Source of the DNA: a virus
Taxonomy: Duplodnaviria > Heunggongvirae > Uroviricota > Caudoviricetes
IMG/VR virus record: IMGVR_UViG_2695420403_000013
Coordinates: 1-26,336 of that record
Length of the DNA stretch: 26,336 nt
Direction: 5' to 3' (one strand)
A program made the position numbers and the translations under genes. Position 1 is the stretch's first letter. Each line of letters opens with the position of its first letter. The notes under the pieces are model-generated. The model was not told the origin of the DNA and made no database searches. It saw only the letters and a list, made by a program, of their open reading frames with translations. Shown piece by piece: positions 745 through 25,202 of the stretch.

Positions 745-1352
745 TGGATAACGCAGTATTAAATAGCGAGTTTATTGCCACGAAGGCGGGGAATATTACC
801 GTCTATAACTACGATGGTGAAACTCGGGAATATATTTCTGCATCAACTGAATATCTTGCAGTGGGTGTCGGTATTCCAGCATATTCCTGTTTAGACGCTC
901 CTGGTACATATAAGGCTGGTTATACAATTTGCCGTTCTGTAGATTTAAATTCATGGGAATATGTGCCAGACCATCGCGGTGAAATCGTCTATAACACCGA
1001 AACGGGAGATGCCAAAGAAATCACAGCACCGGGTGATCACCCCGAAAATACAACCACTATCGCCCCATTAACGCCATACGATAAATGGGATGGTGAGAAA
1101 TGGGTGACCGATACTGAGGCACAGCATAGCGCCGCAGTAGACGCGGCAGAAGCACAGCGTCAGTCACTGATTGATACTGCAATGGCTTCCATTAGTCTGA
1201 TTCAGCTGAAATTACAGGCCGGACGGAATCTGACGCAGTCAGAAACCAGCCGACTTAACACGGTGTTGGATTACATTGACGCGGTGACGGCAACAGATAC
1301 CAGCACCGCGCCGGATGTTATCTGGCCTGAACTGCCGGAGACTGCGCAATAA
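744..1352 (+). CDS. Tail fibre assembly protein (Tfa-like chaperone)
   Basis: 202 aa, directly follows the tail-fibre C-terminus with overlapping stop/start. C-terminal ...TSTAPDVIWPELPE is typical of Tfa proteins. Confidence 0.75.
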   Translation: MDNAVLNSEFIATKAGNITVYNYDGETREYISASTEYLAVGVGIPAYSCLDAPGTYKAGYTICRSVDLNSWEYVPDHRGEIVYNTETGDAKEITAPGDHPENTTTIAPLTPYDKWDGEKWVTDTEAQHSAAVDAAEAQRQSLIDTAMASISLIQLKLQAGRNLTQSETSRLNTVLDYIDAVTATDTSTAPDVIWPELPETAQ

Positions 1353-1521
1353 ACTCACCATCAATATATAAATCCCCCTGCTGTGTGTCAGCAGGGCATT
1401 CTTTCCATATTAATGATGGATGGAATCTTCCTTCAGGATTAATTTCCGTTATCTCTTCTACTTTATTTTCTTCAATTCTTGCCCACATATGAACCTCACC
1501 AGTAAATATAAACTGCGCCAT
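1318..1521 (-). CDS. Small ORF (67 aa) downstream of H; possible remnant or small accessory protein, function unknown
   Basis: ATG at 1519-1521 preceded by GGAG, overlaps the 3' end of H. The region is AT-rich and the ORF runs through the 1376-1396 hairpin, so the 3' part may not be coding. Confidence 0.25.
   Translation of the reverse strand: MAQFIFTGEVHMWARIEENKVEEITEINPEGRFHPSLIWKECPADTQQGDLYIDGEFIAQSPAVQAR
1376..1396. terminator. Stem-loop between the convergent tail-fibre modules, possible bidirectional terminator
   Basis: CCCTGCTG-tgtgt-CAGCAGGG, perfect 8-bp stem, 24 nt after the tfa stop, followed by cattctttcc. Confidence 0.4.
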
Positions 1522-3178
1522 CTGCTCCGGCACCCGACTGACCCGTTGATGAATTAGGACATAATCCAGCTCCGCCACCTCCAGGCCCAACTGCTGATAC
1601 CGCTTTTCCGTTAGCTGTATCTCTGAATGAACCTGCTCCTCCGGGGCCACCACCAGAACCACCATTACCAGCTCCCGATGCGGCAGAAGCAATGGAACCT
1701 GGAGAACCTGGCCCAAGCGATATATTAATTGTTCCCCCGACACCAACTGCGCCTAACCCTCCGGAAGGCTGGCCTCCGCTATAGCCTCCGGAAGCTGACA
1801 TGTAAGTCCCGAAACTGCTCGAGCCACCATTTTTACCGTTTACAGAAATACCAGACACAGGCGCACCACCGGTACCAACCGTAATCGAAACACTGTTTAT
1901 ACCAGTTAAATCTACCAGCCCCTCAGCAACTCCGCCCCCACCACCTCCTCCGCCACATGTAACGGCTGAAGCGGTTGTTGAACCTATCCCTCCTGACGCA
2001 CCGCCACCAATAACTTTGACGTAACATTTTCTTCCTTTGCGCAACTCTTCAGGAACAGTCCAGCTTGTTACTCCAGCCGTTGTGAAGGCAACCAGATTTC
2101 TGAACCCAAATGAACCTTCTCTCAAACCAAGGTATGCGAGAAGACCAGCTACATCCTTTCCACTCAAATTAGTCAGCGTATTGTCCAGCGGTTGTTTACC
2201 TGCTAGCGCATTAAGCATTGTCGTGGCAAAGTTCGGGTCATTCCCCAGCGCCGCCGCCAGTTCGTTCAGTGTATCCAGTGCCGCAGGTGCAGAACCCACC
2301 ATTGCTGCAATCGCTGATTTCACAAAAGCTGTAGTGGCAATCTGTGTATTGTTGACCGACTGTGCCGCAGTAGGTGCTGTTGGCGTTCCGGTGAGTGCCG
2401 GACTCGACAGCGGTGCTTTTAGTGCCAGCGCATTGTTAATGGTGGTACTGAATTTCGGGTCATTGTTAATGGCTTCGGCAATTTCTTTCAGTGTGTCCAG
2501 CGTGGCTGGCGCACCGTTAATCAGAGCAGTAATAGCGGCCTGAACAAACTCAGTGGTCGCAATCCGCGTGGTGTTATTTCCTGCTGCAGGCGTCGGCGCT
2601 TTTGGTTCTCCGGTAAATGTCGGATTATGTTTCTGCGCATACTGGGTATGAGGATCTTGTGCGGCAATGTGGTTTCTCATCTGGTCATCCACATACAGCT
2701 TTAATTCCAGGACTTCATCATCCACGTATTTACGGGTTGCCAGCACTACAGCAGGGTCGATTTTCAGGGTGATATTGTCCGTACTGCTGGTAATCAGCAC
2801 CATGCGCACGGTCTGGGTGCGCCCGCTGCCTTCAGCCAGTTGCGGCTTATAGCTTTCCGGGCAGTTGCCCACGGCAATCAATGCCCCGGACTCATCAAAC
2901 AGGCCCACTTCACGTATCCACCAACCGCCCTCGTTTTCAGGGATCACCTGTTCAGCAATAATCTGGCTGCTGTTCTGCGGGTCGATGTACAGCATATTCA
3001 GCGCAGCCCGGCGTTTCTCATTTACTAATGCTGTCTGCTTTGCGTCCGGCGTTGGCAATGTTCCGCCGCCATCGCCTACCGCCATATGGGTAATTTTTAG
3101 CGGCACACCGAGCGCGGCGGCGCTGGCAAGTTTCGCCGCGCCAATATCCGTCAGCAGGGTATAAAATTTTGTGCTCAT
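1496..3178 (-). CDS. H: Tail fibre protein, P2 gpH-like N-terminal/shaft region with a glycine-rich C-terminal domain
   Basis: 560 aa. N-terminus MSTKFYTLLTDIGAAKLASAA...MAVGDGGG...GGWWIREVGLFD resembles P2 gpH as recalled. Internal repeats (ALINGAPATLDTL / AAMVGSAPAALDTL). C-terminal ~170 aa is very Gly/Ser-rich. ATG overlaps the upstream gene's stop. Confidence 0.85.
   Translation of the reverse strand: MSTKFYTLLTDIGAAKLASAAALGVPLKITHMAVGDGGGTLPTPDAKQTALVNEKRRAALNMLYIDPQNSSQIIAEQVIPENEGGWWIREVGLFDESGALIAVGNCPESYKPQLAEGSGRTQTVRMVLITSSTDNITLKIDPAVVLATRKYVDDEVLELKLYVDDQMRNHIAAQDPHTQYAQKHNPTFTGEPKAPTPAAGNNTTRIATTEFVQAAITALINGAPATLDTLKEIAEAINNDPKFSTTINNALALKAPLSSPALTGTPTAPTAAQSVNNTQIATTAFVKSAIAAMVGSAPAALDTLNELAAALGNDPNFATTMLNALAGKQPLDNTLTNLSGKDVAGLLAYLGLREGSFGFRNLVAFTTAGVTSWTVPEELRKGRKCYVKVIGGGASGGIGSTTASAVTCGGGGGGGGVAEGLVDLTGINSVSITVGTGGAPVSGISVNGKNGGSSSFGTYMSASGGYSGGQPSGGLGAVGVGGTINISLGPGSPGSIASAASGAGNGGSGGGPGGAGSFRDTANGKAVSAVGPGGGGAGLCPNSSTGQSGAGADGAVYIYW
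2117..2142. repeat. Candidate DNA-invertase crossover site, right copy, inside H
   Basis: ttctctcaaaccAAggtatgcgagaa. Its reverse complement ttctcgcataccTTggtttgagagaa matches 251..276 at 22/26. Centre lies at codon positions 2-3 of Leu350 of H (LLAYLGLRE). Confidence 0.5.
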
Positions 3179-4681: not shown

Positions 4682-5027
4682 TCTCTGCTCCTGTTGATAC
4701 GGAAAGGGAAACAGGCACACCGTTATTCCGCCGCCCGGTCAGCTCCACCACCATTGAACCGTCAAAATTGCTGTGGATGGTGATGGAATCCAGCGTCAGC
4801 CGTGGCTCCCAGCGACTCAGCGCCACATACACTGCCGACATGACCTGCAGGCGTAATGCCGGATTTTGTGGCTGGTCTATCAGTGCCGACAGCAGGGAAC
4901 CATATTCACGACGGGCAATGCGACTACCCTGTGGTGTCAGCAGAATGTCCCGCACCGACTGGCGCAGATGGTCAATATCAGTAATGGCTTTGCCGCTGGT
5001 ATTGTTCATCCCGCTATAAAGCGTCAT
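4668..5027 (-). CDS. W: Baseplate assembly protein, gpW-like (gp25/GPW family)
   Basis: 119 aa. MTLYSGMN...DILLTPQGSRIARREYGSLLSALIDQP matches my recollection of P2 gpW. Confidence 0.85.
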   Translation of the reverse strand: MTLYSGMNNTSGKAITDIDHLRQSVRDILLTPQGSRIARREYGSLLSALIDQPQNPALRLQVMSAVYVALSRWEPRLTLDSITIHSNFDGSMVVELTGRRNNGVPVSLSVSTGAENGSD

Positions 5028-5602
5028 ACCGGGCCTCCAGTTGTATCGCCGCCTTTCAGGACGCCAGTATGCTGATGCGCATCAACCACGATCCCGTTAG
5101 AACTCATCGCTCCGCCGCCCTGGGTAATGCCACCATTGATCACCACTTCACTGTTAATGCGCGTGCGGTCAGCCTCCAGTACAAACTCACTGGTTTTCAT
5201 GGTGATGTTGTCAGCGGCCTCAATGACCATTGATTTGATGCCCCTGACATACCAGCGCCCGGTGGCGGGTTCGTATTCAAACCAGCCACCGTCAGGATGT
5301 TCTATCACGCAGGCGTCCGCCGACGTCGACGGTGGCGCGAACTGATTCGAATAGATGGCGGGTAACGCAAAGGCGGTTTCCAGATTGCCGCCCAGACTCA
5401 GCAGCACCACCTGCTCACCTTCCGATGGTCGCCACCATGTGCGAGCATTACCCGCGCGCAGCGTCAGCCAGTTAATCCAGTTGGTTTCAAGGTCGCCCGT
5501 TTTCACCCGACAAAGCCAGTTTTCCCGGTCCACTTCGGTGACTACACCTATGCGGATCAGATTGGTGATAAGGCGCATGATTTCGGTTAGTTGTGCGTTC
5601 AT
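5024..5602 (-). CDS. V: Baseplate spike/assembly protein, gpV-like
   Basis: Start placed at ATG 5600-5602 (MNAQLTEIMRLI...), giving 192 aa. The 273-aa listed ORF has an N-terminal extension reaching into the AT-rich intergenic region. ...TWW.PSEGEQV... resembles P2 gpV. Confidence 0.85.
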   Translation of the reverse strand: MNAQLTEIMRLITNLIRIGVVTEVDRENWLCRVKTGDLETNWINWLTLRAGNARTWWRPSEGEQVVLLSLGGNLETAFALPAIYSNQFAPPSTSADACVIEHPDGGWFEYEPATGRWYVRGIKSMVIEAADNITMKTSEFVLEADRTRINSEVVINGGITQGGGAMSSNGIVVDAHQHTGVLKGGDTTGGPV

Positions 5603-5648
5603 AGATATATGATGACAGCTGAAAACTTGTTTATAACTTCTTGCAAAT

Positions 5649-5666
5649 TGTGGTATCGATGGTACA
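5649..5666. promoter_or_regulatory. TGT-N12-ACA dyad in the V upstream region, candidate late-activator (Ogr/B-type) site
   Basis: tgtggtatcgatggtaca. P2-family late promoters carry a TGT-N12-ACA element upstream; spacing to the V start is not a clean fit. Confidence 0.3.
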
Positions 5667-5705
5667 AATTGATAAAAGGATAAAAAACAACCAATAGGTG
5701 GATAA

Positions 5706-6512
5706 ATGAGTGTTATGAATCCAATAAGTTCTAATATATTTAATGCTGAATTTTTAAACACCCCGGCAGCGGCACTTGCCGCATGGATTTCCATTATTGG
5801 AGCTGTTATAACTTTGGTGACGATAGTTATAAGAGCACTATTCAAATATAGAAAATCTCATGATGTAATTTTGAAAAAATCAGGAATACCTGCGTTTATA
5901 TTAAATTTTTTTCTTATACGAATATCATTAAAAAGGCTGCCTACTATCACATGGGCTGAAAAATCAATCACGGTTCTCTTTTCACTTCTTTTTTTGTGTG
6001 CAATTTATATTTTTGGTCCAGTTTTCATCCAAGCCATTAGAACCCCACCAAATAGCACATTGCTTTATTGGATAAAGTCCGGTGAATCATTTTATATGTC
6101 AAAAAAACTGGCGACTGCAGCTACAATATTAACCACTCCTGATTGGGAAATATCAAAGGATGATTGCGAAGAGTCATCCTCTGCCAGTACAGAGAAGTAC
6201 AAATCATTAACTATCGAACATAAAGAAATTCTTTGTAAACTACTAACCACTGATGAAGGGAATGCTTACATTGATGAAGAAGTCAAGAATTTCGTTAAAG
6301 ACAAATTCTTTATCTATTCCTTTGCCCCAACAACCATATTTATTCTATTATGGATTTCTTTGGGTTTTATACTGACCATTCACTATTCTAAAAAAGTTAG
6401 GAAATATATTCTGACTGAACAAAAAAATGCAATTCATTGGGCATATGGTGAATTCAAGACAGAAGGAATCTATTCAATATATCAAGAGTTAGAACGTAAG
6501 ACTCACCATTAA
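5706..6512 (+). CDS. Cargo gene: multi-pass inner-membrane protein of unknown function
   Basis: 268 aa, AT-rich, opposite strand to the flanking late operons. AGGTGG ribosome-binding site before the ATG. About 4 hydrophobic helices plus a ~90-aa acidic soluble loop. Confidence 0.6.
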   Translation: MSVMNPISSNIFNAEFLNTPAAALAAWISIIGAVITLVTIVIRALFKYRKSHDVILKKSGIPAFILNFFLIRISLKRLPTITWAEKSITVLFSLLFLCAIYIFGPVFIQAIRTPPNSTLLYWIKSGESFYMSKKLATAATILTTPDWEISKDDCEESSSASTEKYKSLTIEHKEILCKLLTTDEGNAYIDEEVKNFVKDKFFIYSFAPTTIFILLWISLGFILTIHYSKKVRKYILTEQKNAIHWAYGEFKTEGIYSIYQELERKTHH

Positions 6513-6900
6513 GACCCAACAAACGACGCTCTGCGTAACGCACTTCTGGTCCTTTGCGGCTGACGCGATCGCGCAGGCCATAATGGTGAACGCGGGCAAT
6601 GCGCTGCACCTTACTTTCAAACTGTACGCTGGCAGAGTCGGCGCTGGCGGCGGTTTTCAGGTATTTGGTGGTGCGCAGCTTTGCAAACATCTGACGTTTG
6701 ATGCGGCCTTTTTTACTGCGCGCCGTGACCTTGCGCGGTTCATAACTGCTGCCATCTGGATTGCGCTGCATCCTGATATTCTGCTGCTGTGTCCGGCGCA
6801 GTTCCTGCGCCAGCTGGCGCATCATGCGGCTTCTTGCGACTGGTTCCAGATTCGCCAGTAAGGCACTAAGCCAGTCGTCCACCTTCTGCAGTTCAGCCAC
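6454..6900 (-). CDS. S: Tail completion protein, gpS-like
   Basis: 148 aa, position between R and V. The last ~19 codons lie in the AT-rich cargo DNA and overlap the 3' end of the 5706..6512 gene. Confidence 0.8.
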   Translation of the reverse strand: MAELQKVDDWLSALLANLEPVARSRMMRQLAQELRRTQQQNIRMQRNPDGSSYEPRKVTARSKKGRIKRQMFAKLRTTKYLKTAASADSASVQFESKVQRIARVHHYGLRDRVSRKGPEVRYAERRLLGLNGESYVLTLDILNRFLLS

Positions 6901-7577: not shown

Positions 7578-7848
7578 GTTTCAGTTCCTCGATCCGGTGT
7601 TGTCGTTGTCTCAGCAGTGCGCTGGTCTGTTCTGCTTCGGCATAGAGCCGCGCCTGCTCCAGGTTATTGGTTTCAGTCAGAATGGACAGACCGATCAGCT
7701 GGCTGTTTTTCTTCGTCAGTTCCTGCGCTTTACTTTTCAGCGCCGCGCGCTGCGTTTCGATGGTGTGGCTGGCGCTGTTAAGCCGCCACGACTGCCAGCC
7801 CAGCGCAACGAGTGCCAGCGCCACCACTACTGCCAGCGCACGCGTCAT
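7420..7848 (-). CDS. lysB: Inner-membrane spanin (LysB/Rz-like)
   Basis: 142 aa with an N-terminal TM helix (ALAVVVALALVALGW) followed by a coiled-coil region. Immediately downstream of the endolysin. Confidence 0.7.
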   Translation of the reverse strand: MTRALAVVVALALVALGWQSWRLNSASHTIETQRAALKSKAQELTKKNSQLIGLSILTETNNLEQARLYAEAEQTSALLRQRQHRIEELKRENEDLRRWADTPLPADITRLRERPALTGGTAYRQWLSASDAVSAGSGNAAH

Positions 7849-8360
7849 AGTCCAGCTCCTTTAAGGCACCAGGCCATCTCCCGCGCACGGCGGTTATCCA
7901 GCCCCTGATTAAAAACACCTTTCACATAAACCCAGCGCGGCAACTGTCGGCACGCATCCGCCCAGCGCCGCTGATTGAGCAATTTCACCAGCGTGGAACT
8001 GCAGGCATTGCCCGTTCCCACGTTGAAGGCAAACGACACCGCAGCGTCATACACCTTCTGCGGCGGCTGTTGCTTCACACACCTTTCCAGCGCCCGCTCC
8101 ACACGCAGCACGTTGGAGATCAGCCCTTCCGCTGCCTGTCGTTCCGTAATGGTTTTGCCCGGGATGACGCCCGATGTATTACCAATGCCGTCGGTCCAGA
8201 CACCCGCGCTGCACTGATACGGCTGCAGACGACAGCCTTCGTAATCAGCAATCAGTTTCAGCCCCTCCACGGAGGTGTGAAGCTGCTGAAAACCCGGCAG
8301 CGTGGCAGTAATAGCCAGCACGGTCCCGACAAGGCAGCGTTTAACGATTGATGGATTCAT
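7845..8360 (-). CDS. K: Endolysin (phage lysozyme, gpK-like) with N-terminal signal-anchor
   Basis: 171 aa. Hydrophobic N-terminus VGTVLAITATLPG, then EGLKLIADYEGCRLQPYQCSAGVWTDGIGNT, a lysozyme-like catalytic region. Confidence 0.8.
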   Translation of the reverse strand: MNPSIVKRCLVGTVLAITATLPGFQQLHTSVEGLKLIADYEGCRLQPYQCSAGVWTDGIGNTSGVIPGKTITERQAAEGLISNVLRVERALERCVKQQPPQKVYDAAVSFAFNVGTGNACSSTLVKLLNQRRWADACRQLPRWVYVKGVFNQGLDNRRAREMAWCLKGAGL

Positions 8361-8556
8361 AGTCCTCCCGCGAGATCTGCCCGTCGCGCAGAAGCTGGTA
8401 GGCTTTGTGTTTGTAGTACCAGTTGATAGCCAGCATCAGCACACCAATCATCAGGCCGCCCAGCGTTGAGGCATCCTTGATGGACAAATCGCCCAGCCAG
8501 GCCAGCACGACGGCGATGCAATACGTGATAAAGGCGCTGATTCGCTCAAGCGTCAT
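8341..8556 (-). CDS. Y: Holin (gpY position)
   Basis: 71 aa, two hydrophobic helices and a charged C-terminus, directly upstream of the endolysin. Confidence 0.65.
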   Translation of the reverse strand: MTLERISAFITYCIAVVLAWLGDLSIKDASTLGGLMIGVLMLAINWYYKHKAYQLLRDGQISREDYESINR

Positions 8557-11963: not shown

Positions 11964-11981
11964 TGTACCGACAACCACACA
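11964..11981. promoter_or_regulatory. TGT-N12-ACA dyad in the O/P divergent late-promoter region
   Basis: tgtaccgacaaccacaca, lying between the O start (11885) and the P start (12028). Confidence 0.35.
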
Positions 11982-14860: not shown

Positions 14861-16543
14861 TTACAAATACCGTCTAACACGTATTTTATTAATCTTCGAC
14901 TCATTTCCAATTCTTATCAAAGCATTTCTCGCTTTTTCTCCGATGCGTTTCATTCTATCTGAACCATTGCTATACCCACCAAACTTAAGAGCAGTGGCTA
15001 TTATTGAATCACCACCTTCAAGAATGACTTTTTTAAATAAATCATAGTAGTCATCCTCTGAGGCAGCATCCAATATTTCCTCGTGCCTATCAGACCAACC
15101 ATTCTGACTTGATAATTTTATTAGAACATCCTTTATAGAACCATCCAGATTTAAAGTAATAGAATAATCTTGGATTTTTGACTTTAACTCAGCATCTTTT
15201 ATAGGATGAACATTCATGTAAATAGATTGGACATATTCCTTAAGAGCATCATTGCCGTAATTAATAAATTTACTTATTAATTCACTTGCTTTAATATTTT
15301 CATCTAAATCTCTATACAGTCCGACAACACTATCCAAGTCACTTGGAGTTACATACTCTATCCCACCAACCACCGCTTGATATAGATTATCAACGACCTG
15401 ATTTCGGTTATCTTCAAATGAATTATAGAAAAGCTTCCATGCTTCAAACAGTGAACCTCGCTTACTATCACGGATAAGTTCATCATTTCTTAGACTTACT
15501 TGCCTTTGAAAATTGTTCATATCAATATATCCATGCTTAACCATGTCTATAAGGACTTCATCAAGTTCGTTTGTTTTTTTATAACCATATATAAGCAAAG
15601 TATTAAGCCATTTTTTTCCTTTTCCATCCTCTTTTTCATCACGCACATAGATATTTCTCATATTTCTAATATACTCCAATGATGGTACATCTCCATCTGG
15701 AGTAAATGCGTAATGACTCCAACAATACAAAGTTAAGGAGCGTGCGACTTCATTTGCAATTTTATCAAAATTAATGTTAATAGCAGGTAACAAGGCTAGC
15801 AAAAACCGCTCTATTTTTTTCAGTATCCGAATATTTTTAATACCTAGAGAAATGGAGTATTTGCTTAATAATTTATGAACATCAGAATTATTTTTATATG
15901 CTATAGCTGCACATTCTTCTGGCGTAGGGTTATAGGTAATCTCTCTATCAATAACCTTTTCTTTATAAGTGGAGTAATCATCCATACCACTTGTCCCATT
16001 ATTAAGTAAAAGAACCACCTTACAATTTTTTTGTTCTTTCAATAAAGAAACCAACCCTAAGACATCTTTCACTTCTAAATTTTTACCACGTCTTTCTAAG
16101 TCATCTATGACTACAATAACATTAGTAATTGACATAAATGACATTGACTCAAGTGTCGTAGCGAAATTTTTCACAACAGGTGTTTCTTTTAACAAACGAG
16201 CGGTCTTTCTAGTGCAGGATTCAAGAAGTCCCTTTGTATTTTGGGTTGCTGTTTTTAAATTAGGTTTATTTCCAATAAAATCTTTTGTAATTGTATTTTC
16301 AAAGATGGAATATTTTAATGCGTCCAATGAATTAACACCAAAAAGAGAGACGTAACTATATCTATTAAATGCAATCTTATTCTTATTTTCCTTTAAGAAA
16401 GTATTCCAAGTATAGGTTTTCCCAATCCCCCATTCACCCTGAATAGCCATTACCTCAGGTTCTGCAGATGAAATAAAGTCTGACAACTGTTCTTTAATAT
16501 AGTCCAATGACATGCACATTCTCCGAGATAGATAGTCATCCAT
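14861..16543 (-). CDS. Cargo gene: KAP-family P-loop NTPase (PifA-like), candidate anti-phage/exclusion protein
   Basis: Walker A QGEWGIGKT (Trp-containing G-x-W-G-x-G-K-T typical of KAP NTPases) and Walker B VVIDDLERR. AT-rich. Probable true start is ATG 16511-16513 (GGAG ribosome-binding site), downstream of a TATAAT at 16544-16549. Confidence 0.6.
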   Translation of the reverse strand: MDDYLSRRMCMSLDYIKEQLSDFISSAEPEVMAIQGEWGIGKTYTWNTFLKENKNKIAFNRYSYVSLFGVNSLDALKYSIFENTITKDFIGNKPNLKTATQNTKGLLESCTRKTARLLKETPVVKNFATTLESMSFMSITNVIVVIDDLERRGKNLEVKDVLGLVSLLKEQKNCKVVLLLNNGTSGMDDYSTYKEKVIDREITYNPTPEECAAIAYKNNSDVHKLLSKYSISLGIKNIRILKKIERFLLALLPAININFDKIANEVARSLTLYCWSHYAFTPDGDVPSLEYIRNMRNIYVRDEKEDGKGKKWLNTLLIYGYKKTNELDEVLIDMVKHGYIDMNNFQRQVSLRNDELIRDSKRGSLFEAWKLFYNSFEDNRNQVVDNLYQAVVGGIEYVTPSDLDSVVGLYRDLDENIKASELISKFINYGNDALKEYVQSIYMNVHPIKDAELKSKIQDYSITLNLDGSIKDVLIKLSSQNGWSDRHEEILDAASEDDYYDLFKKVILEGGDSIIATALKFGGYSNGSDRMKRIGEKARNALIRIGNESKINKIRVRRYL

Positions 16544-16580
16544 ATTATAACCCGAGTACTATCAAAGTAATAAGCGCGCG

Positions 16581-16599
16581 CTCGTATCCCCGCCACGCC
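16581..16599 (-). other. Candidate cos (cohesive-end) site
   Basis: The - strand reads GGCGTGGCGGGGAtacgag; the first 13 nt match the P2/186 cohesive-end sequence as I recall it (GGCG(A/T)GGCGGGGAAAGCA). Orientation relative to Q is as in P2. Confidence 0.45.
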
Positions 16600-16640
16600 T
16601 GCCCGCTTTATGTAGTGGTTTTCATGCAGGTGCATGATCT

Positions 16641-16668
16641 ACGCAAAAGCCCGCCAGTTCTGGCGGGC
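16641..16668 (-). terminator. Rho-independent terminator acting on the - strand
   Basis: GCCCGCCAG-ttc-TGGCGGGC; on the - strand it is followed by TTTTGCGT. Confidence 0.5.
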
Positions 16669-16941
16669 CTTAGCAAAAACGATCCTCAAACGATCATGCA
16701 ATCTCATGCAGCATAGACATGCACAGACGAGTAAAGCGAATCGGACTTTACGCAAGGTGAACTCCTCAGCGGGCATAATCAGTATGTCGGAAGATCTCTA
16801 AAAATGAATAATTCGGTTAACAGGTATGCTTACAAAAGCATATATTTGATTAAAAATCATGTAAGGGGGAGGATCTCAAACTGAATCGCCACGGGTTTTA
16901 CAAATTTCGATAGTCTCTCTAACGTTTCGGCTGAGGTCAAA

Positions 16942-17367
16942 ATGAAAAGCTTTTACGTATTAATTTTAATTCTGGTTGCAAGCTTTGTTAGCGTCCCAGT
17001 TCAGGCGGTAACAGCTAAAAACTATGAGAAAGGAACTAAAGCTCAACAGAAATCAATATCTTACCTTTCATGTGCATTCTATGGCAGTAGCACACAATTA
17101 GATCCTAGCTACACGGAGCAAGTACCTACAGCCGATATCAAGATATTACAGAAAGCAGCTTACCACGCTTACAACGATGCGCTCTCATACTTTGGCTATG
17201 AGGAACCAGATCACGAACAACGCATAATTGATTATGCTGAATTTGTGGCGTCGCAAGAAGCTGTGTTATGGGATAAGCCGGGAATGAATGGAAAGCAGGT
17301 AACACTAATTGCTCGTTCTCTCTACAATGAGAGTAACTGTAACTTGTTACTGGACTCAATTAAGTAG
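16942..17367 (+). CDS. Cargo gene: small secreted/periplasmic protein, unknown function
   Basis: 141 aa. Signal peptide MKSFYVLILILVASFVSVPVQA, GAGG ribosome-binding site, AT-rich. Confidence 0.6.
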   Translation: MKSFYVLILILVASFVSVPVQAVTAKNYEKGTKAQQKSISYLSCAFYGSSTQLDPSYTEQVPTADIKILQKAAYHAYNDALSYFGYEEPDHEQRIIDYAEFVASQEAVLWDKPGMNGKQVTLIARSLYNESNCNLLLDSIK

Positions 17368-17526
17368 GAAAAAGATGGTATTTTGCCCGTAGTTTCAACC
17401 TTAATCTCCGAACCTGTCGCAGAACGGGCGTTCACTCATCAAATAAACGCCACACCTAACGCCTCACTGTACTCGTTGTTCAACCTTGCTGACGCCAGAA
17501 CCAAGTTCAGACGCCAGCAACTTTTC

Positions 17527-17760
17527 TTAATGCAGCCAGCTGTCGTCTTCCCACACCTTCTGCATAATCTTCATCACTTGTTTTCTTTCTTCGTCCAGTT
17601 GCAGTCCGGTCAGTTCCACACCGTTAGAGCTACCTTTGCGGATGCGAATTACCGTTTTGGGATACAGGGGGCGCAGATTGCGGTAAAGCTCGGATTCAAG
17701 GGCGTCCAGGGTAGACTGGCTAATCTTCTGCTCTTTATCGATCATTATTTCAATGCGCAT
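17527..17760 (-). CDS. DinI-like protein (second gene of the Tum-like operon)
   Basis: Start at ATG 17758-17760 after GGTGA. MRIEIMIDKEQKIS...LDALESELYRNL...KIMQKVWEDDSWLH resembles DinI (MRIEV...). Confidence 0.65.
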   Translation of the reverse strand: MRIEIMIDKEQKISQSTLDALESELYRNLRPLYPKTVIRIRKGSSNGVELTGLQLDEERKQVMKIMQKVWEDDSWLH

Positions 17761-17770
17761 AAAGGTCACC

Positions 17771-17959
17771 TCAGCTGATGACATCCATTGAGCGGTTGTA
17801 TTCGTGGGTTCTGATTTTTGCCATGAGTTCATCTGTCAGTTCAGAAACCCACTGCAAAGCCAGCCCCTTCTCTTCATCACTACACTCACTAGCCGCTACA
17901 AGCTTAAGAAAAAAATCAATGCGCTGGAGCTTCAAAGACTCCAAAAAATAGTCCTGCAT
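17771..17959 (-). CDS. Small protein (62 aa), first gene of the LexA-controlled operon; possible antirepressor (Tum N-terminal-like)
   Basis: ATG 17957-17959 preceded by AGGAGG. The longer listed ORF (start 18061) would run through the LexA box and is rejected. Confidence 0.4.
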   Translation of the reverse strand: MQDYFLESLKLQRIDFFLKLVAASECSDEEKGLALQWVSELTDELMAKIRTHEYNRSMDVIS

Positions 17960-23270: not shown

Positions 23271-24215
23271 ATGTCAACTCAAAAATTCACATTTCGCCAT
23301 ATGAATGACGATATGAAAGCCGTTGTCATACAGAATCGCGGTGGTCAGAAAGTAATTGAGCGGATACTCATGGCTTATGGCTTCAAGTCACGCCAGGCAT
23401 TCTGTAACCATCTAGGTATTTCCCAAAGCACGATGGCTAACAGATATGCCCGCGATACATTTCCTGCAGATTGGGTAGTTATCTGCTCAATGGAAACAGG
23501 AGCATCAATTAAATGGCTAGCATTTGGTTCAGATGATGACGAGCAAATGCCATCCCCTTCACCAGAACAACATGTTGAAACACACTCCGAAGATGGTTCT
23601 TATCATGATGTTCACTATAAACAACAAAAGTTCGACAATGAAAACTCCGTTGATTTTTCTCGAGGTGGCAAGGAAGCAATAGAACGAATTGTTAAGGCTT
23701 ACGGTTATAAGACGCGCCAAGCCTTAGCTGATCACTTAGGTATTTCAAAAAGCACATTAGCCACAAGATATATGCGTGATGTCTTTCCTTCAGACTGGAT
23801 AATTAAGTGCGCTCTAGAAACGGGTACTTCACTAACGTGGCTAACTACTGGTAAAGGCCCAAAGTTTGACGATGCAAGAAATGATGTAATTGCTATTACA
23901 CGCAAAAAAATCACTGATGGGAATCTATTTGAGTCAGATTTCTATATGCTTGATAAAGCATTAATACCAGACTCAATCCAATTACCACTGATTGTCAGTA
24001 CCCCAAAAAAAACATACCTATGTGATCAGTCATTTGATGAAATTACAGATGGTAAATGGATTGTTGAAATAGAAGGAAAAGTGAGCATTCGAACCCTAAC
24101 TAGGATACCTGTAGGAAGATTAAAAATCTCAGACAATTATTTATCGTTTGAATGTAATATTTCAGACATTGATGTTATTGCTAAATGCAAATTTTTGCTT
24201 ATAGAAGAATTATAA
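23271..24215 (+). CDS. cI: CI-type immunity repressor with a tandemly duplicated N-terminal HTH domain
   Basis: 314 aa. Two ~70-aa repeats (IERILMAYGFKSRQAFCNHLGISQSTMANRY...METGASIKWL and IERIVKAYGYKTRQALADHLGISKSTLATRY...LETGTSLTWL), each resembling the 186 CI N-domain, plus a CI-like C-terminal domain. Confidence 0.7.
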   Translation: MSTQKFTFRHMNDDMKAVVIQNRGGQKVIERILMAYGFKSRQAFCNHLGISQSTMANRYARDTFPADWVVICSMETGASIKWLAFGSDDDEQMPSPSPEQHVETHSEDGSYHDVHYKQQKFDNENSVDFSRGGKEAIERIVKAYGYKTRQALADHLGISKSTLATRYMRDVFPSDWIIKCALETGTSLTWLTTGKGPKFDDARNDVIAITRKKITDGNLFESDFYMLDKALIPDSIQLPLIVSTPKKTYLCDQSFDEITDGKWIVEIEGKVSIRTLTRIPVGRLKISDNYLSFECNISDIDVIAKCKFLLIEEL

Positions 24216-24227
24216 GAGGATATTGGA

Positions 24228-25202
24228 ATGGCCGGTTCCAATTGGAAAGATAATAGTGAAGAATATATCTCTAGAATCATTAAACTAGAGGAATTAAAAT
24301 CATATTTATCCGATAGTGTCTATAATGATTTGAAAAAACTATTGAATTCTTTAAAGTTTAATGAATTCGATGTGCTTTTTGATGTTTACAGTAAATATTT
24401 TTCTAAAAAATATAATTGTGAGCACATTAACCCCGAACGCACATCCTTAAAAAATAGTGAGATAGATGATTACATTTCAAAAATCACTAAATTAGAGCAT
24501 AAAGTGCGTGAATTGCAAAAAATCCATAACTCTCATTCAGAGCAAATGGAAAAGTTGAATGAAAAATTATTAAATGAAATGGAAAGTAAAAAAAAACTAG
24601 CATCACAGCTAGATTTCCAACACGCCAAAAACAATGAGCTAAAGCTTCAAAACCAAGAACTTTCAAGCAAAATCCAACAAAATAAAATTGACGAAAAAGT
24701 TCCTAAATATGTGCAGGGCGTCAAAGAAAAACTACAGCAGGATGATAAAGATTTCACTGCAATGTCTTACAATTGGGCGATAGCCGGAATACTATTTTCA
24801 TTATTATCTATAAGTGCCGCCTTTTTAACATTTTTTTATAAAATAGATATAAAAGATACTACCCCCATTGAACTTTTTTATTATTTCACTAGGGGCTTGC
24901 TTGGGGTTGCATTACTTTCTTGGCTTTCTTATTTTTGTTTAAACAATTCAAAAAAATACACACATGAAGCAATCATAAGAAAAGACAGACAACATGCTCT
25001 AATGTTTGGTGAAGTCTTCTTACAAATTTATGGTTCAACTGCGACAAAACAAGATGCTATTGATGTGTTTAAAGATTGGAACATGTCTGCTAATTCTGCA
25101 TTCGCAGATAAAATGCAGCCACCTCCAAATTTATTTAACATTCTAGGTACACTTGTAGATAAAAAATCAGCAGCAAATGATGACAGCATTACCAAAAAGT
25201 GA
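24228..25202 (+). CDS. Cargo gene in the lysogenic operon: coiled-coil plus two-TM membrane protein, unknown function
   Basis: 324 aa, AT-rich. Starts 13 nt after the cI stop with an AGAGGA ribosome-binding site. N-terminal ~170 aa heptad-rich and charged; helices WAIAGILFSLLSISAAFLTFFY and LLGVALLSWLSYFCL. Confidence 0.6.
   Translation: MAGSNWKDNSEEYISRIIKLEELKSYLSDSVYNDLKKLLNSLKFNEFDVLFDVYSKYFSKKYNCEHINPERTSLKNSEIDDYISKITKLEHKVRELQKIHNSHSEQMEKLNEKLLNEMESKKKLASQLDFQHAKNNELKLQNQELSSKIQQNKIDEKVPKYVQGVKEKLQQDDKDFTAMSYNWAIAGILFSLLSISAAFLTFFYKIDIKDTTPIELFYYFTRGLLGVALLSWLSYFCLNNSKKYTHEAIIRKDRQHALMFGEVFLQIYGSTATKQDAIDVFKDWNMSANSAFADKMQPPPNLFNILGTLVDKKSAANDDSITKK

Follow-up and report, generated by a model that had tools for sequence, protein, structure and literature searches.

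A DUF6216 inner-membrane protein gene as exchangeable cargo at the V-S junction of P2-like prophages, with a tentative role in phage exclusion

The AT-rich open reading frame at positions 5706 to 6512 (plus strand) of a 186/P2-like prophage is a real, foreign and exchangeable gene under purifying selection. It is near certain that this cargo gene is a horizontally acquired moron in the orf30 slot, that is, the junction between V and S, and that it encodes an inner-membrane protein of the DUF6216 family. As for function, the best reading is that the product is an envelope-level anti-phage protein expressed in the lysogen and resembling superinfection exclusion proteins; we propose this tentatively, with confidence that falls somewhat short of even, on the analogies of genomic context and predicted architecture set out below.

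The prophage occupies the window (the whole stretch of DNA analysed, 26,336 nt), which begins at its left end with tail fibre genes, followed by I, J, W, V and the cargo gene. To the right of the cargo gene, S, R, lysB, lysozyme, holin, X, L, M, N and O lie on the minus strand; P and Q follow on the plus strand, then the AT-rich TO region, and the rightmost part of the window carries replication gene A, a Dam-type methylase, CII, a 186-type CI, a second AT-rich island and the integrase. The slot is anchored on the left by the gene of the baseplate spike protein gpV (5024 to 5602, minus strand; Pfam Phage_base_V at 6.3e-18, plus Apex), whose CDS of 579 nt has the same length as in annotated relatives, and on the right by the tail-completion gene of gpS (6454 to 6900, minus strand; Pfam Phage_tail_S at 1.9e-38), whose product is, with the exception of its tail, 83-87% identical to gpS of relatives. 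The cargo gene itself (268 aa plus stop; Pfam PF19723) has a GC content of 0.331, and GC is 0.32-0.36 over positions 5550-6450 compared with 0.52-0.61 (about 0.57) on either flank. The first-pass annotation of this DNA had described an AT-rich cargo ORF between V and S on the opposite strand, and both its coordinates and the drop in GC (0.33 against ~0.57) are borne out; it had also placed the gene at the position of P2 orf30, in agreement with the P2 reference annotation, where Orf30 is found in the same slot and on the same relative strand. At the composition of the cargo gene, stop codons are expected at a frequency of ~0.075 per codon, which by simple arithmetic gives a chance of ~1e-9 for a 268-codon open frame. 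A search of the window against Rfam returned no structured-RNA match.

The limits of the exchanged segment were placed by alignment against CP019275, in which the V-S junction is empty, and against phage Cartapus, whose junction is occupied by another gene, of 176 aa. Backbone identity to these relatives ends just past the start codon of V (CAT, 5600-5602) and returns near 6513. On the right-hand side, the cargo gene and S share a dual-coding overlap of 59 nt (6454 to 6512, both strands; GC 0.32), which encodes the C-terminal tail of the cargo protein on the plus strand (GEFKTEGIYSIYQELERKTHH) and the last ~18 codons of gpS on the minus strand; when both translations are read, the 3' end of the cargo gene is indeed seen to supply the gpS C-terminus, as had been suggested. 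The last ~18 residues of gpS vary with the content of the slot (empty, Cartapus, PARIS, SIR2, GmrSD, TIR and DUF6216), are of equal length with a loose LLG-x-N...L pattern kept throughout, and are similar among DUF6216 carriers. As the gpS tail differs with each slot content, the boundary of exchange lies inside the 3' end of S, and the cargo-specific tail is the mark of the junction remodelling that had been postulated there. The tail of the cargo protein remains conserved in loci whose S is destroyed. No direct or inverted repeats of note were found in the flanks of the cargo gene; insertion by a mobile element was rejected on this ground, and exchange probably takes place by recombination in the conserved V and S. 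Because S is essential and would be truncated if the cargo were cleanly deleted, their antisense overlap may anchor the cargo.

Of 5,426 complete E. coli genomes, 111 carry the cargo DNA, each in a single copy. The carriers include all E. coli B/BL21 derivatives, in which the gene is 99.7% identical (WP_000115390.1) and, in BL21, lies in a defective P2-like prophage between ybjL and rcdA that carries a retron at its TO region. The 4.5-kb backbone around the cargo is found in 1,072 genomes, and slot content was surveyed in an evenly spaced sample of 60 records with this backbone, 58 of which were informative. The V-S junction is empty in ~30 of the 58 (about half), contains DUF6216 in 7 (about 12% of the sampled E. 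coli P2-like prophages) and has other content in ~21. An empty junction is a 68-bp spacer, as verified in UMNK88. Contents verified to lie exactly between V and S are a SIR2 protein, a GmrSD-type restriction enzyme, a TIR protein and an AAA ATPase with DUF4435 (the PARIS pair), and the backbones around these four are 94-95% identical to that of the window prophage. According to annotation names, other occupants include Sll1717/KAP-type P-loop NTPases and an FRG protein, and many are plain hypotheticals. Given that recognised systems are verified between V and S, the slot is a defence hotspot. Related P2-like prophages are thus seen to have nothing, DUF6216 or unrelated genes between V and S on near-identical backbones, as expected of the horizontally acquired cargo in a variable slot proposed by the first-pass annotation; rather than occurring in all relatives with a backbone-like composition, the gene is present in ~12% of them at a GC of 0.33 against 0.57.

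Earlier work counts the orf30 region, like the TO and Z regions, among the places where P2-like phages carry genes gained by horizontal transfer (PMC3091744; PMC6823313), and phage R18C carries yet another ORF there (PMC6823313). The recent papers on defence hotspots that we consulted are concerned with the old/tin, Z/fun and cI-adjacent loci rather than with the V-S junction (PMC9122126; PMC9519451; bioRxiv 10.1101/2024.10.15.618418), and our limited search of the literature found no description of this junction as a defence hotspot. In a preprint on H-NS silencing of immunity loci, DUF6216 occurs once, BL21 29 times and "P2-like" 4 times (bioRxiv 10.64898/2026.09.05.749240).

Among homologues, dN/dS is about 0.14-0.32, and the gene is also found where the surrounding prophage has decayed. 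In Serratia rubidaea, only V(1-80) and S remain with the homologue; in Klebsiella aerogenes, it stands beside V(1-23), a broken S and an IS; a further enterobacterium has it together with scraps of V and S, near CI and an OLD-like ATPase; and in a fourth lineage it is the sole gene left between ybjL and rcdA, flanked by ~80 nt of S. The homologues in these decayed prophages are all intact and AT-rich, with a GC of 0.33-0.38 regardless of that of the flank. Intact survival, in combination with the dN/dS values, argues that the host, and not the phage alone, may benefit from the gene. A second hotspot next to CI was considered for one homologue (P0028) and rejected, as tblastn finds scraps of V and S at its flanks, identifying it as a deletion remnant of the same slot. 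Further afield, three distant members of the family (22-25% identity) share islands with an Mrr-type nuclease, an MmeI-type RM system, T5orf172, CbtA/CbeA and SymE.

Between V and the cargo gene is a divergent control region (5603 to 5705) that is conserved among seven DUF6216 loci and that, with the exception of an activator box, is the first stretch to differ from empty-site and other-cargo relatives. The box, an exact match to the pattern TGT-N12-ACA (5649 to 5666), is likely the Ogr/Delta/B-type activator site of the late promoter pV, which reads leftward into V; the centre of the box is ~55 nt from the V ATG, and the same motif is found in the same place in the empty-site relative and in Cartapus. 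In the annotation of P2, the pV activator site lies between orf30 and V, and the V transcript starts at the first base of the CDS, a layout that the distance of our box from the V ATG fits. The TGT half-site is gone in remnants without V. Part of the sequence that was originally taken as promoter-like for the cargo gene is, instead, this activator box of the divergent pV.

A candidate sigma-70 promoter of the cargo gene is located at 5641 to 5670 (plus strand), with a -35 element TTGCAA (5641-5646) and a -10 region TGGTACAAATT (5660-5670). TTG(C/A)AA and TGGTACAAATT are kept in all seven DUF6216 loci, and the promoter-like pair is also kept in the solo remnants, where the coding sequence is saturated at synonymous sites and V and the activator box are gone. 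A Shine-Dalgarno sequence, AGGTGG (5696 to 5701, plus strand), can be read 4 nt before the ATG, and GGAGG, GGTGG or GGAGA occurs in 7 of 7 loci. The original claim that the gene has its own promoter-like elements and ribosome-binding site therefore stands as far as the conservation of the -35/-10-like pair and the Shine-Dalgarno sequence goes, while a strict consensus promoter scan found nothing upstream of the cargo gene. We infer from this conservation, which is good comparative evidence, that the cargo gene has a functional promoter of its own. A scan for terminator-like sites found none between S and the cargo gene, and late transcription of the O operon probably runs antisense into the latter.

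Hydropathy analysis of the 268-aa protein gives three strong transmembrane (TM) helices (residues ~22-44, 87-109 and 205-227), one fewer than the approximately four first suggested, with a short amphipathic helix as a possible fourth. The N-terminal 21 residues, which contain no K or R, are predicted to be periplasmic, and are followed by TM1 (residues ~22-44, 5769 to 5837, plus strand as for all segments of the protein; hydropathy peak 2.58, and a helix in the AlphaFold2 model) and by a basic cytoplasmic loop 1 (residues ~45-86, 5838 to 5963; 10 K/R against 2 D/E). Loop 1 has a mean column identity of 0.74 and, in the AlphaFold2 model, a short amphipathic helix at residues 63-68. TM2 (residues ~87-109, 5964 to 6032; hydropathy 2.55, model helix 83-111) leads into loop 2, a predicted periplasmic beta/alpha domain with an invariant pair of cysteines, C154 and C177 (residues ~110-204, 6033 to 6317), after which TM3 (residues ~205-227, 6318 to 6386; hydropathy 2.07, also a model helix) and a basic cytoplasmic C-terminal tail (residues 228-268, 6387 to 6509; column identity 0.79-0.83) complete the protein. 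Loop 2 is net acidic and the tail basic, and the distribution of charge would fit a predicted N-out/C-in topology with loop 2 in the periplasm. AlphaFold2 models loop 2 (residues 108-206) confidently, as a four-stranded sheet plus helices (pLDDT 85, pTM 0.76); the full-length model is moderate (pLDDT 70). The C154/C177 pair would likewise be in keeping with a disulfide bond in an oxidising compartment. In silico, the gene thus encodes a single, membrane-localised prophage protein, and no partner gene is present in the slot.

No family had been recognised for this protein in the first-pass annotation, but Pfam DUF6216 (PF19723) matches residues 72-237 with 45.6 bits (E 7e-12), where the curated gathering threshold is 27.3, and the RefSeq name for the identical sequence is "DUF6216 family protein". 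The homologues form 32 clusters at 50-99% identity, and a precomputed PF19723 match is present in all 31 full-length homologues. DUF6216 is a tiny family, with 49 proteins at E up to 0.001 in a profile search of 1.84 billion representative proteins; all members with a source organism name are from Enterobacterales (Escherichia, Salmonella, Klebsiella, Citrobacter and Serratia). The sole residues invariant across the family (30 members, down to 19% identity) are F129, C154 and C177, all of which are in loop 2, and the window protein carries the family core of F129, C154, C177, W147 and L120 together with the three-TM layout. Within the enterobacterial subfamily, it is the C-terminal tail, loop 1 and the N-terminus that are most conserved, and the loop-2 domain and TM helices are more variable. 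Distant members of 234-246 aa account for 22 of the 30 aligned rows; they end near query position 245 and do not have residues 248-268, and in three longer distant members the C-terminus is extended by unrelated sequence. The last ~21 residues, which correspond exactly to the overlap with S, occur only in the P2-associated subfamily.

Searches of other resources returned little. PADLOC-DB v2 gave 0 families at E up to 10, and a known defence protein was rejected on this basis. With PHROGs yielding nothing informative (four sub-threshold matches, E 0.16-0.42) and tblastn against 50,697 phage records, P2 included, finding no match, membership of a known phage protein family was also rejected. 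NCBIfam gave only noise, a sequence profile search of the PDB no match, and the BFVD predicted viral structures nothing at E up to 0.001; there is no structural similarity to the PDB or to predicted viral structures, known exclusion proteins included. No enzymatic or nucleotide-binding domain was found in the cargo protein with Pfam and NCBIfam. Identification as a holin or antiholin was rejected because Phage_holin_2_3 matches on TM1 only, at 14.5 bits against a cut-off of 28.8; the real holin of the prophage is encoded at 8341-8556, and some relatives have DUF6216 and a LysA-like gene side by side in one prophage.

If the cargo protein does act in phage exclusion, transcription would start from the gene's own sigma-70-type promoter, back-to-back with pV, and would run away from V and convergently with the O-to-S operon. 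Having its own promoter, the cargo gene could be expressed in the lysogen, and its AT-richness would make it a likely target of H-NS. The protein would insert N-out/C-in, with three TM helices and a disulfide-stabilised domain of ~95 aa in the periplasm, and with the basic loop and the conserved helical tail on the cytoplasmic side. As a single protein without a partner gene, it would shield the lysogen from other phages at the envelope, most likely by blocking genome entry across the inner membrane, that is, by superinfection exclusion. Exclusion is made plausible by the defence systems in the same slot of sister prophages, by the retention of the gene under purifying selection in decayed prophages, by the distant members among defence genes and by the like architecture of Orf30, the occupant of this slot in P2, and action at the envelope is suggested by the location of the invariant residues in the predicted periplasmic loop, by the positive-inside charge and by the confidently modelled domain. 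Guilt by association of this kind is weakened by the many hypothetical occupants of the slot. Moreover, T1-T7 have E. coli B as their classical permissive host, and since this strain carries the gene yet permits these phages, the gene at native expression does not block them. The cargo gene may be silent, narrow in range or no defence gene at all, and the sensitivity of E. coli B means that any defence must be narrow or silenced at native expression.

This sensitivity, together with the lack of a match to any defence model, would suit a lysogenic-conversion factor of the envelope that is unrelated to phages, for example one protecting against colicins or contact-dependent toxins, conferring tolerance of envelope stress or modifying the surface. 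Retention of the gene in decayed prophages would in that case reflect a host benefit of unspecified kind, and non-defence cargo, such as cytolethal distending toxin, does exist in P2-like hotspots (PMC9122126, PMC6823313). We nevertheless consider such a factor rather unlikely, as recognised anti-phage systems fill the same slot in sister prophages, distant members are found among restriction and toxin-antitoxin genes, and the profile searches showed no resemblance to a known immunity protein, Gtr protein or transporter. The position of the invariant residues bears on another alternative, namely an abortive-infection membrane effector that would sense infection via the conserved cytoplasmic loop or tail or via perturbation of the membrane and then oligomerise; the inner membrane would be depolarised or made permeable, and the cell would die before phages are released. 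Such an effector might be expected from a multi-TM protein in a defence hotspot, and conservation within the subfamily is highest in the cytoplasmic parts; a toxic product would suit a gene that is AT-rich and probably silenced, and TM1 bears a weak, sub-threshold resemblance to a holin profile (14.5 bits against 28.8). However, every residue that is invariant across the family maps to the predicted periplasmic domain, with none in the TM or cytoplasmic parts, and many genomes, as well as BL21, stably retain the gene with no obvious antidote. Known membrane Abi effectors usually have a partner sensor (RexA/RexB, KwaA/KwaB), and the cargo has no partner sensor gene. Taken with the points in its favour, abortive infection seems to us an unlikely mode of action.

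The prophage's own cycle offers a further explanation, in which the protein is an accessory in the timing of lysis, or has an inner-membrane role in the ejection of the phage's own DNA or in assembly. The cargo lies within the late region, near the lysis cassette, it has a control region in common with pV, and the window is without the small DNZ54_00345 gene, which in many relatives is found between the lysozyme gene and lysB and which we take to be LysA-like. Such an accessory is nonetheless improbable: some prophages contain both DUF6216 and the LysA-like gene (H57-H59, with a span longer by 376 nt), about half of the closely related prophages leave the slot unoccupied, the Orf30 of P2 is annotated as non-essential, and the gene is oriented against the late operons and persists in dead phages. 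That the stretch is non-functional passenger DNA or a mis-called ORF is hardly credible, in view of a 268-codon open frame at 33% GC, dN/dS well below 1, promoter-like elements and a Shine-Dalgarno sequence that are conserved, residues that are invariant down to 19%-identical relatives, and a confident domain model.

Exclusion at the envelope remains our preferred reading, and it can be extended to the family as a whole. It is possible, if somewhat doubtful, that DUF6216, perhaps with P2 Orf30 as a distant relative, represents a new family of anti-phage proteins that act alone in the inner membrane, face the periplasm and have a fold absent from solved structures, and that this family is carried in a fourth defence hotspot of the P2 family (the V-S junction) and has been repeatedly domesticated by Enterobacterales as the last gene of dead prophages. 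If phage exclusion is the true function, a one-gene, envelope-level mechanism with an unrecognised fold would be added to the catalogue of defence systems. The 99.7% identical copy in E. coli B/BL21 makes the proposal readily testable and, were it to hold, the gene would bear on phage work with B strains. Whatever the function of the cargo gene, as GmrSD, SIR2, TIR and PARIS are found beside many unnamed genes in the V-S junction of E. coli P2-like prophages, it is a compact place in which to seek further systems. With its repeated survival in decayed prophages, the DUF6216 gene illustrates clearly, on a small scale, how a moron is domesticated.

Among known genes, P2 orf30 (product NP_046770.1) is alike in its slot between S and V, its orientation against the late operons, its AT-richness (GC 0.34 compared with 0.57 in the flanks) and the length of its product (261 aa compared with 268 aa). 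Orf30 also has three TM helices, a basic first loop, a basic tail and a second loop of ~93 aa with exactly two cysteines, which are invariant in Orf30 homologues; it is annotated as non-essential and has no assigned function. It differs in having no tblastn similarity to the cargo protein and no Pfam DUF6216 match, in its first loop of 81 aa rather than ~42, and in that orf30 does not overlap S and is separated from it by the terminator of the O operon, whereas no terminator was found at the cargo gene. Comparison of DUF6216 and Orf30 profiles with hhalign gives a probability of only 15% (pairwise E 0.0017), with the Cys pair and TM3 aligned. The lysogenic-conversion defence genes of P2, old, tin and fun(Z), are similarly AT-rich, non-essential cargo in fixed slots, swapped between conserved backbones, but their proteins are soluble and unrelated to DUF6216. 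Lambda RexB and Kiwa KwaA are multi-pass inner-membrane proteins of prophages or defence islands that differ in acting with a partner protein, whereas the cargo has no partner gene or PADLOC match. T4 Imm, P22 SieA and HK97 gp15 are small, single-gene membrane proteins of phages or prophages that have no enzymatic domains and act at the envelope. No sequence or fold similarity to them was found (PDB, predicted viral structures), and they are of other topology, without the predicted 95-aa, two-cysteine periplasmic domain of the cargo protein; what they would have in common with it is action at the envelope, the mode that we propose for the cargo protein.

The V-S junction of E. coli P2-like prophages (related loci L012-L015, L003 and L022), the slot between the tail genes V and S that corresponds to window positions 5603-6512, is a defence hotspot. 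SIR2, GmrSD, TIR and AAA+DUF4435 (PARIS) genes are placed exactly at this junction in related E. coli prophages whose backbones are 94-95% identical, and in about half of the E. coli P2-like prophages sampled the junction holds only an empty 68-bp spacer. The P2-hotspot papers covered by a limited literature search do not deal with the V-S slot.

The DUF6216 membrane protein gene that fills this slot in the window (5706-6512, + strand) runs into gene S, such that opposite strands of 6454-6512 encode the conserved C-terminal 19 residues of the cargo protein and the tail of gpS. The overlap is true dual coding. Since the two tails share this stretch, a clean deletion of the cargo gene would truncate the essential gene S. 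Each of the other cargo types at the junction supplies its own S tail.

Homologues of the DUF6216 gene are also found outside intact prophages. At two loci (L020 6001-6792 and L021 426-1217), a P2-like prophage has been lost except for a 63%-identical copy between ybjL and rcdA, where E. coli BL21 has its prophage; the copy still has its promoter-like elements, and some 80 nt of S persist beside it. Distant relatives at further loci (L016-L019; 22-25% identity) have a fixed neighbourhood in common, consisting of an Mrr_cat/DUF8426 nuclease upstream and, downstream on the other strand, a 192-aa methyltransferase and a 337-aa unknown protein, with SymE close by. This neighbourhood is embedded in larger islands carrying an MmeI restriction-modification system, T5orf172, CbtA/CbeA and a PAAR protein. 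Distant DUF6216 pairs have dN/dS values of 0.14-0.32; the two closest E. coli variants (window 5706-6512 and L004 4001-4807, 94% amino acid identity) give 0.71, which may be a hint of recent diversification or, because the number of changes is small, noise.

Two other AT-rich islands are present in the window. The TO (old/tin) hotspot (14861-17778, GC 0.32-0.40), between the portal gene Q and the replication gene A, contains the gene for a 560-aa P-loop NTPase of the KAP family, with a match to PADLOC candidate PDC-S49 (E 8e-25), and two small ORFs (141 and 131 aa) for which no family was matched. The most AT-rich island (24228-25202, GC 0.28-0.33) lies between CI and the integrase, in the position of a third P2-family hotspot that has been described (bioRxiv 10.1101/2024.10.15.618418), and its 324-aa ORF has no match in Pfam or PADLOC. 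The adjacent CI ORF (23271-24215) is listed at 314 aa, compared with 189 aa for CI of the BL21 relative, and contains two stretches matching the CI-repressor HTH domain; the ORF may have been called too long, or its N-terminal domain may be duplicated.

At the tail-fibre end, the + strand carries a tail-fibre assembly gene and another tail-fibre tip with a Collar domain (97-1352), opposite to the tail fibre gene H (1318-3178, - strand); invertible host-range segments are laid out in this way. A recombinase pseudogene adjoins the equivalent region in BL21. In the lysis cassette, the prophage lacks at the lysozyme/lysB junction (7845-7848) the 125-aa gene DNZ54_00345, presumably LysA-like, that many relatives carry there; prophages have or lack it independently of DUF6216.

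TGT-N12-ACA boxes were matched at places where late promoters would be expected from P2, namely upstream of V (within 5600-5666) and between O and P (11964-11981). Over the whole window the motif occurs 7 times against 7 expected, which is not above chance. The centre of the V box lies about 55 nt from the V ATG, a spacing that agrees with the annotation of the P2 V transcript as leaderless.
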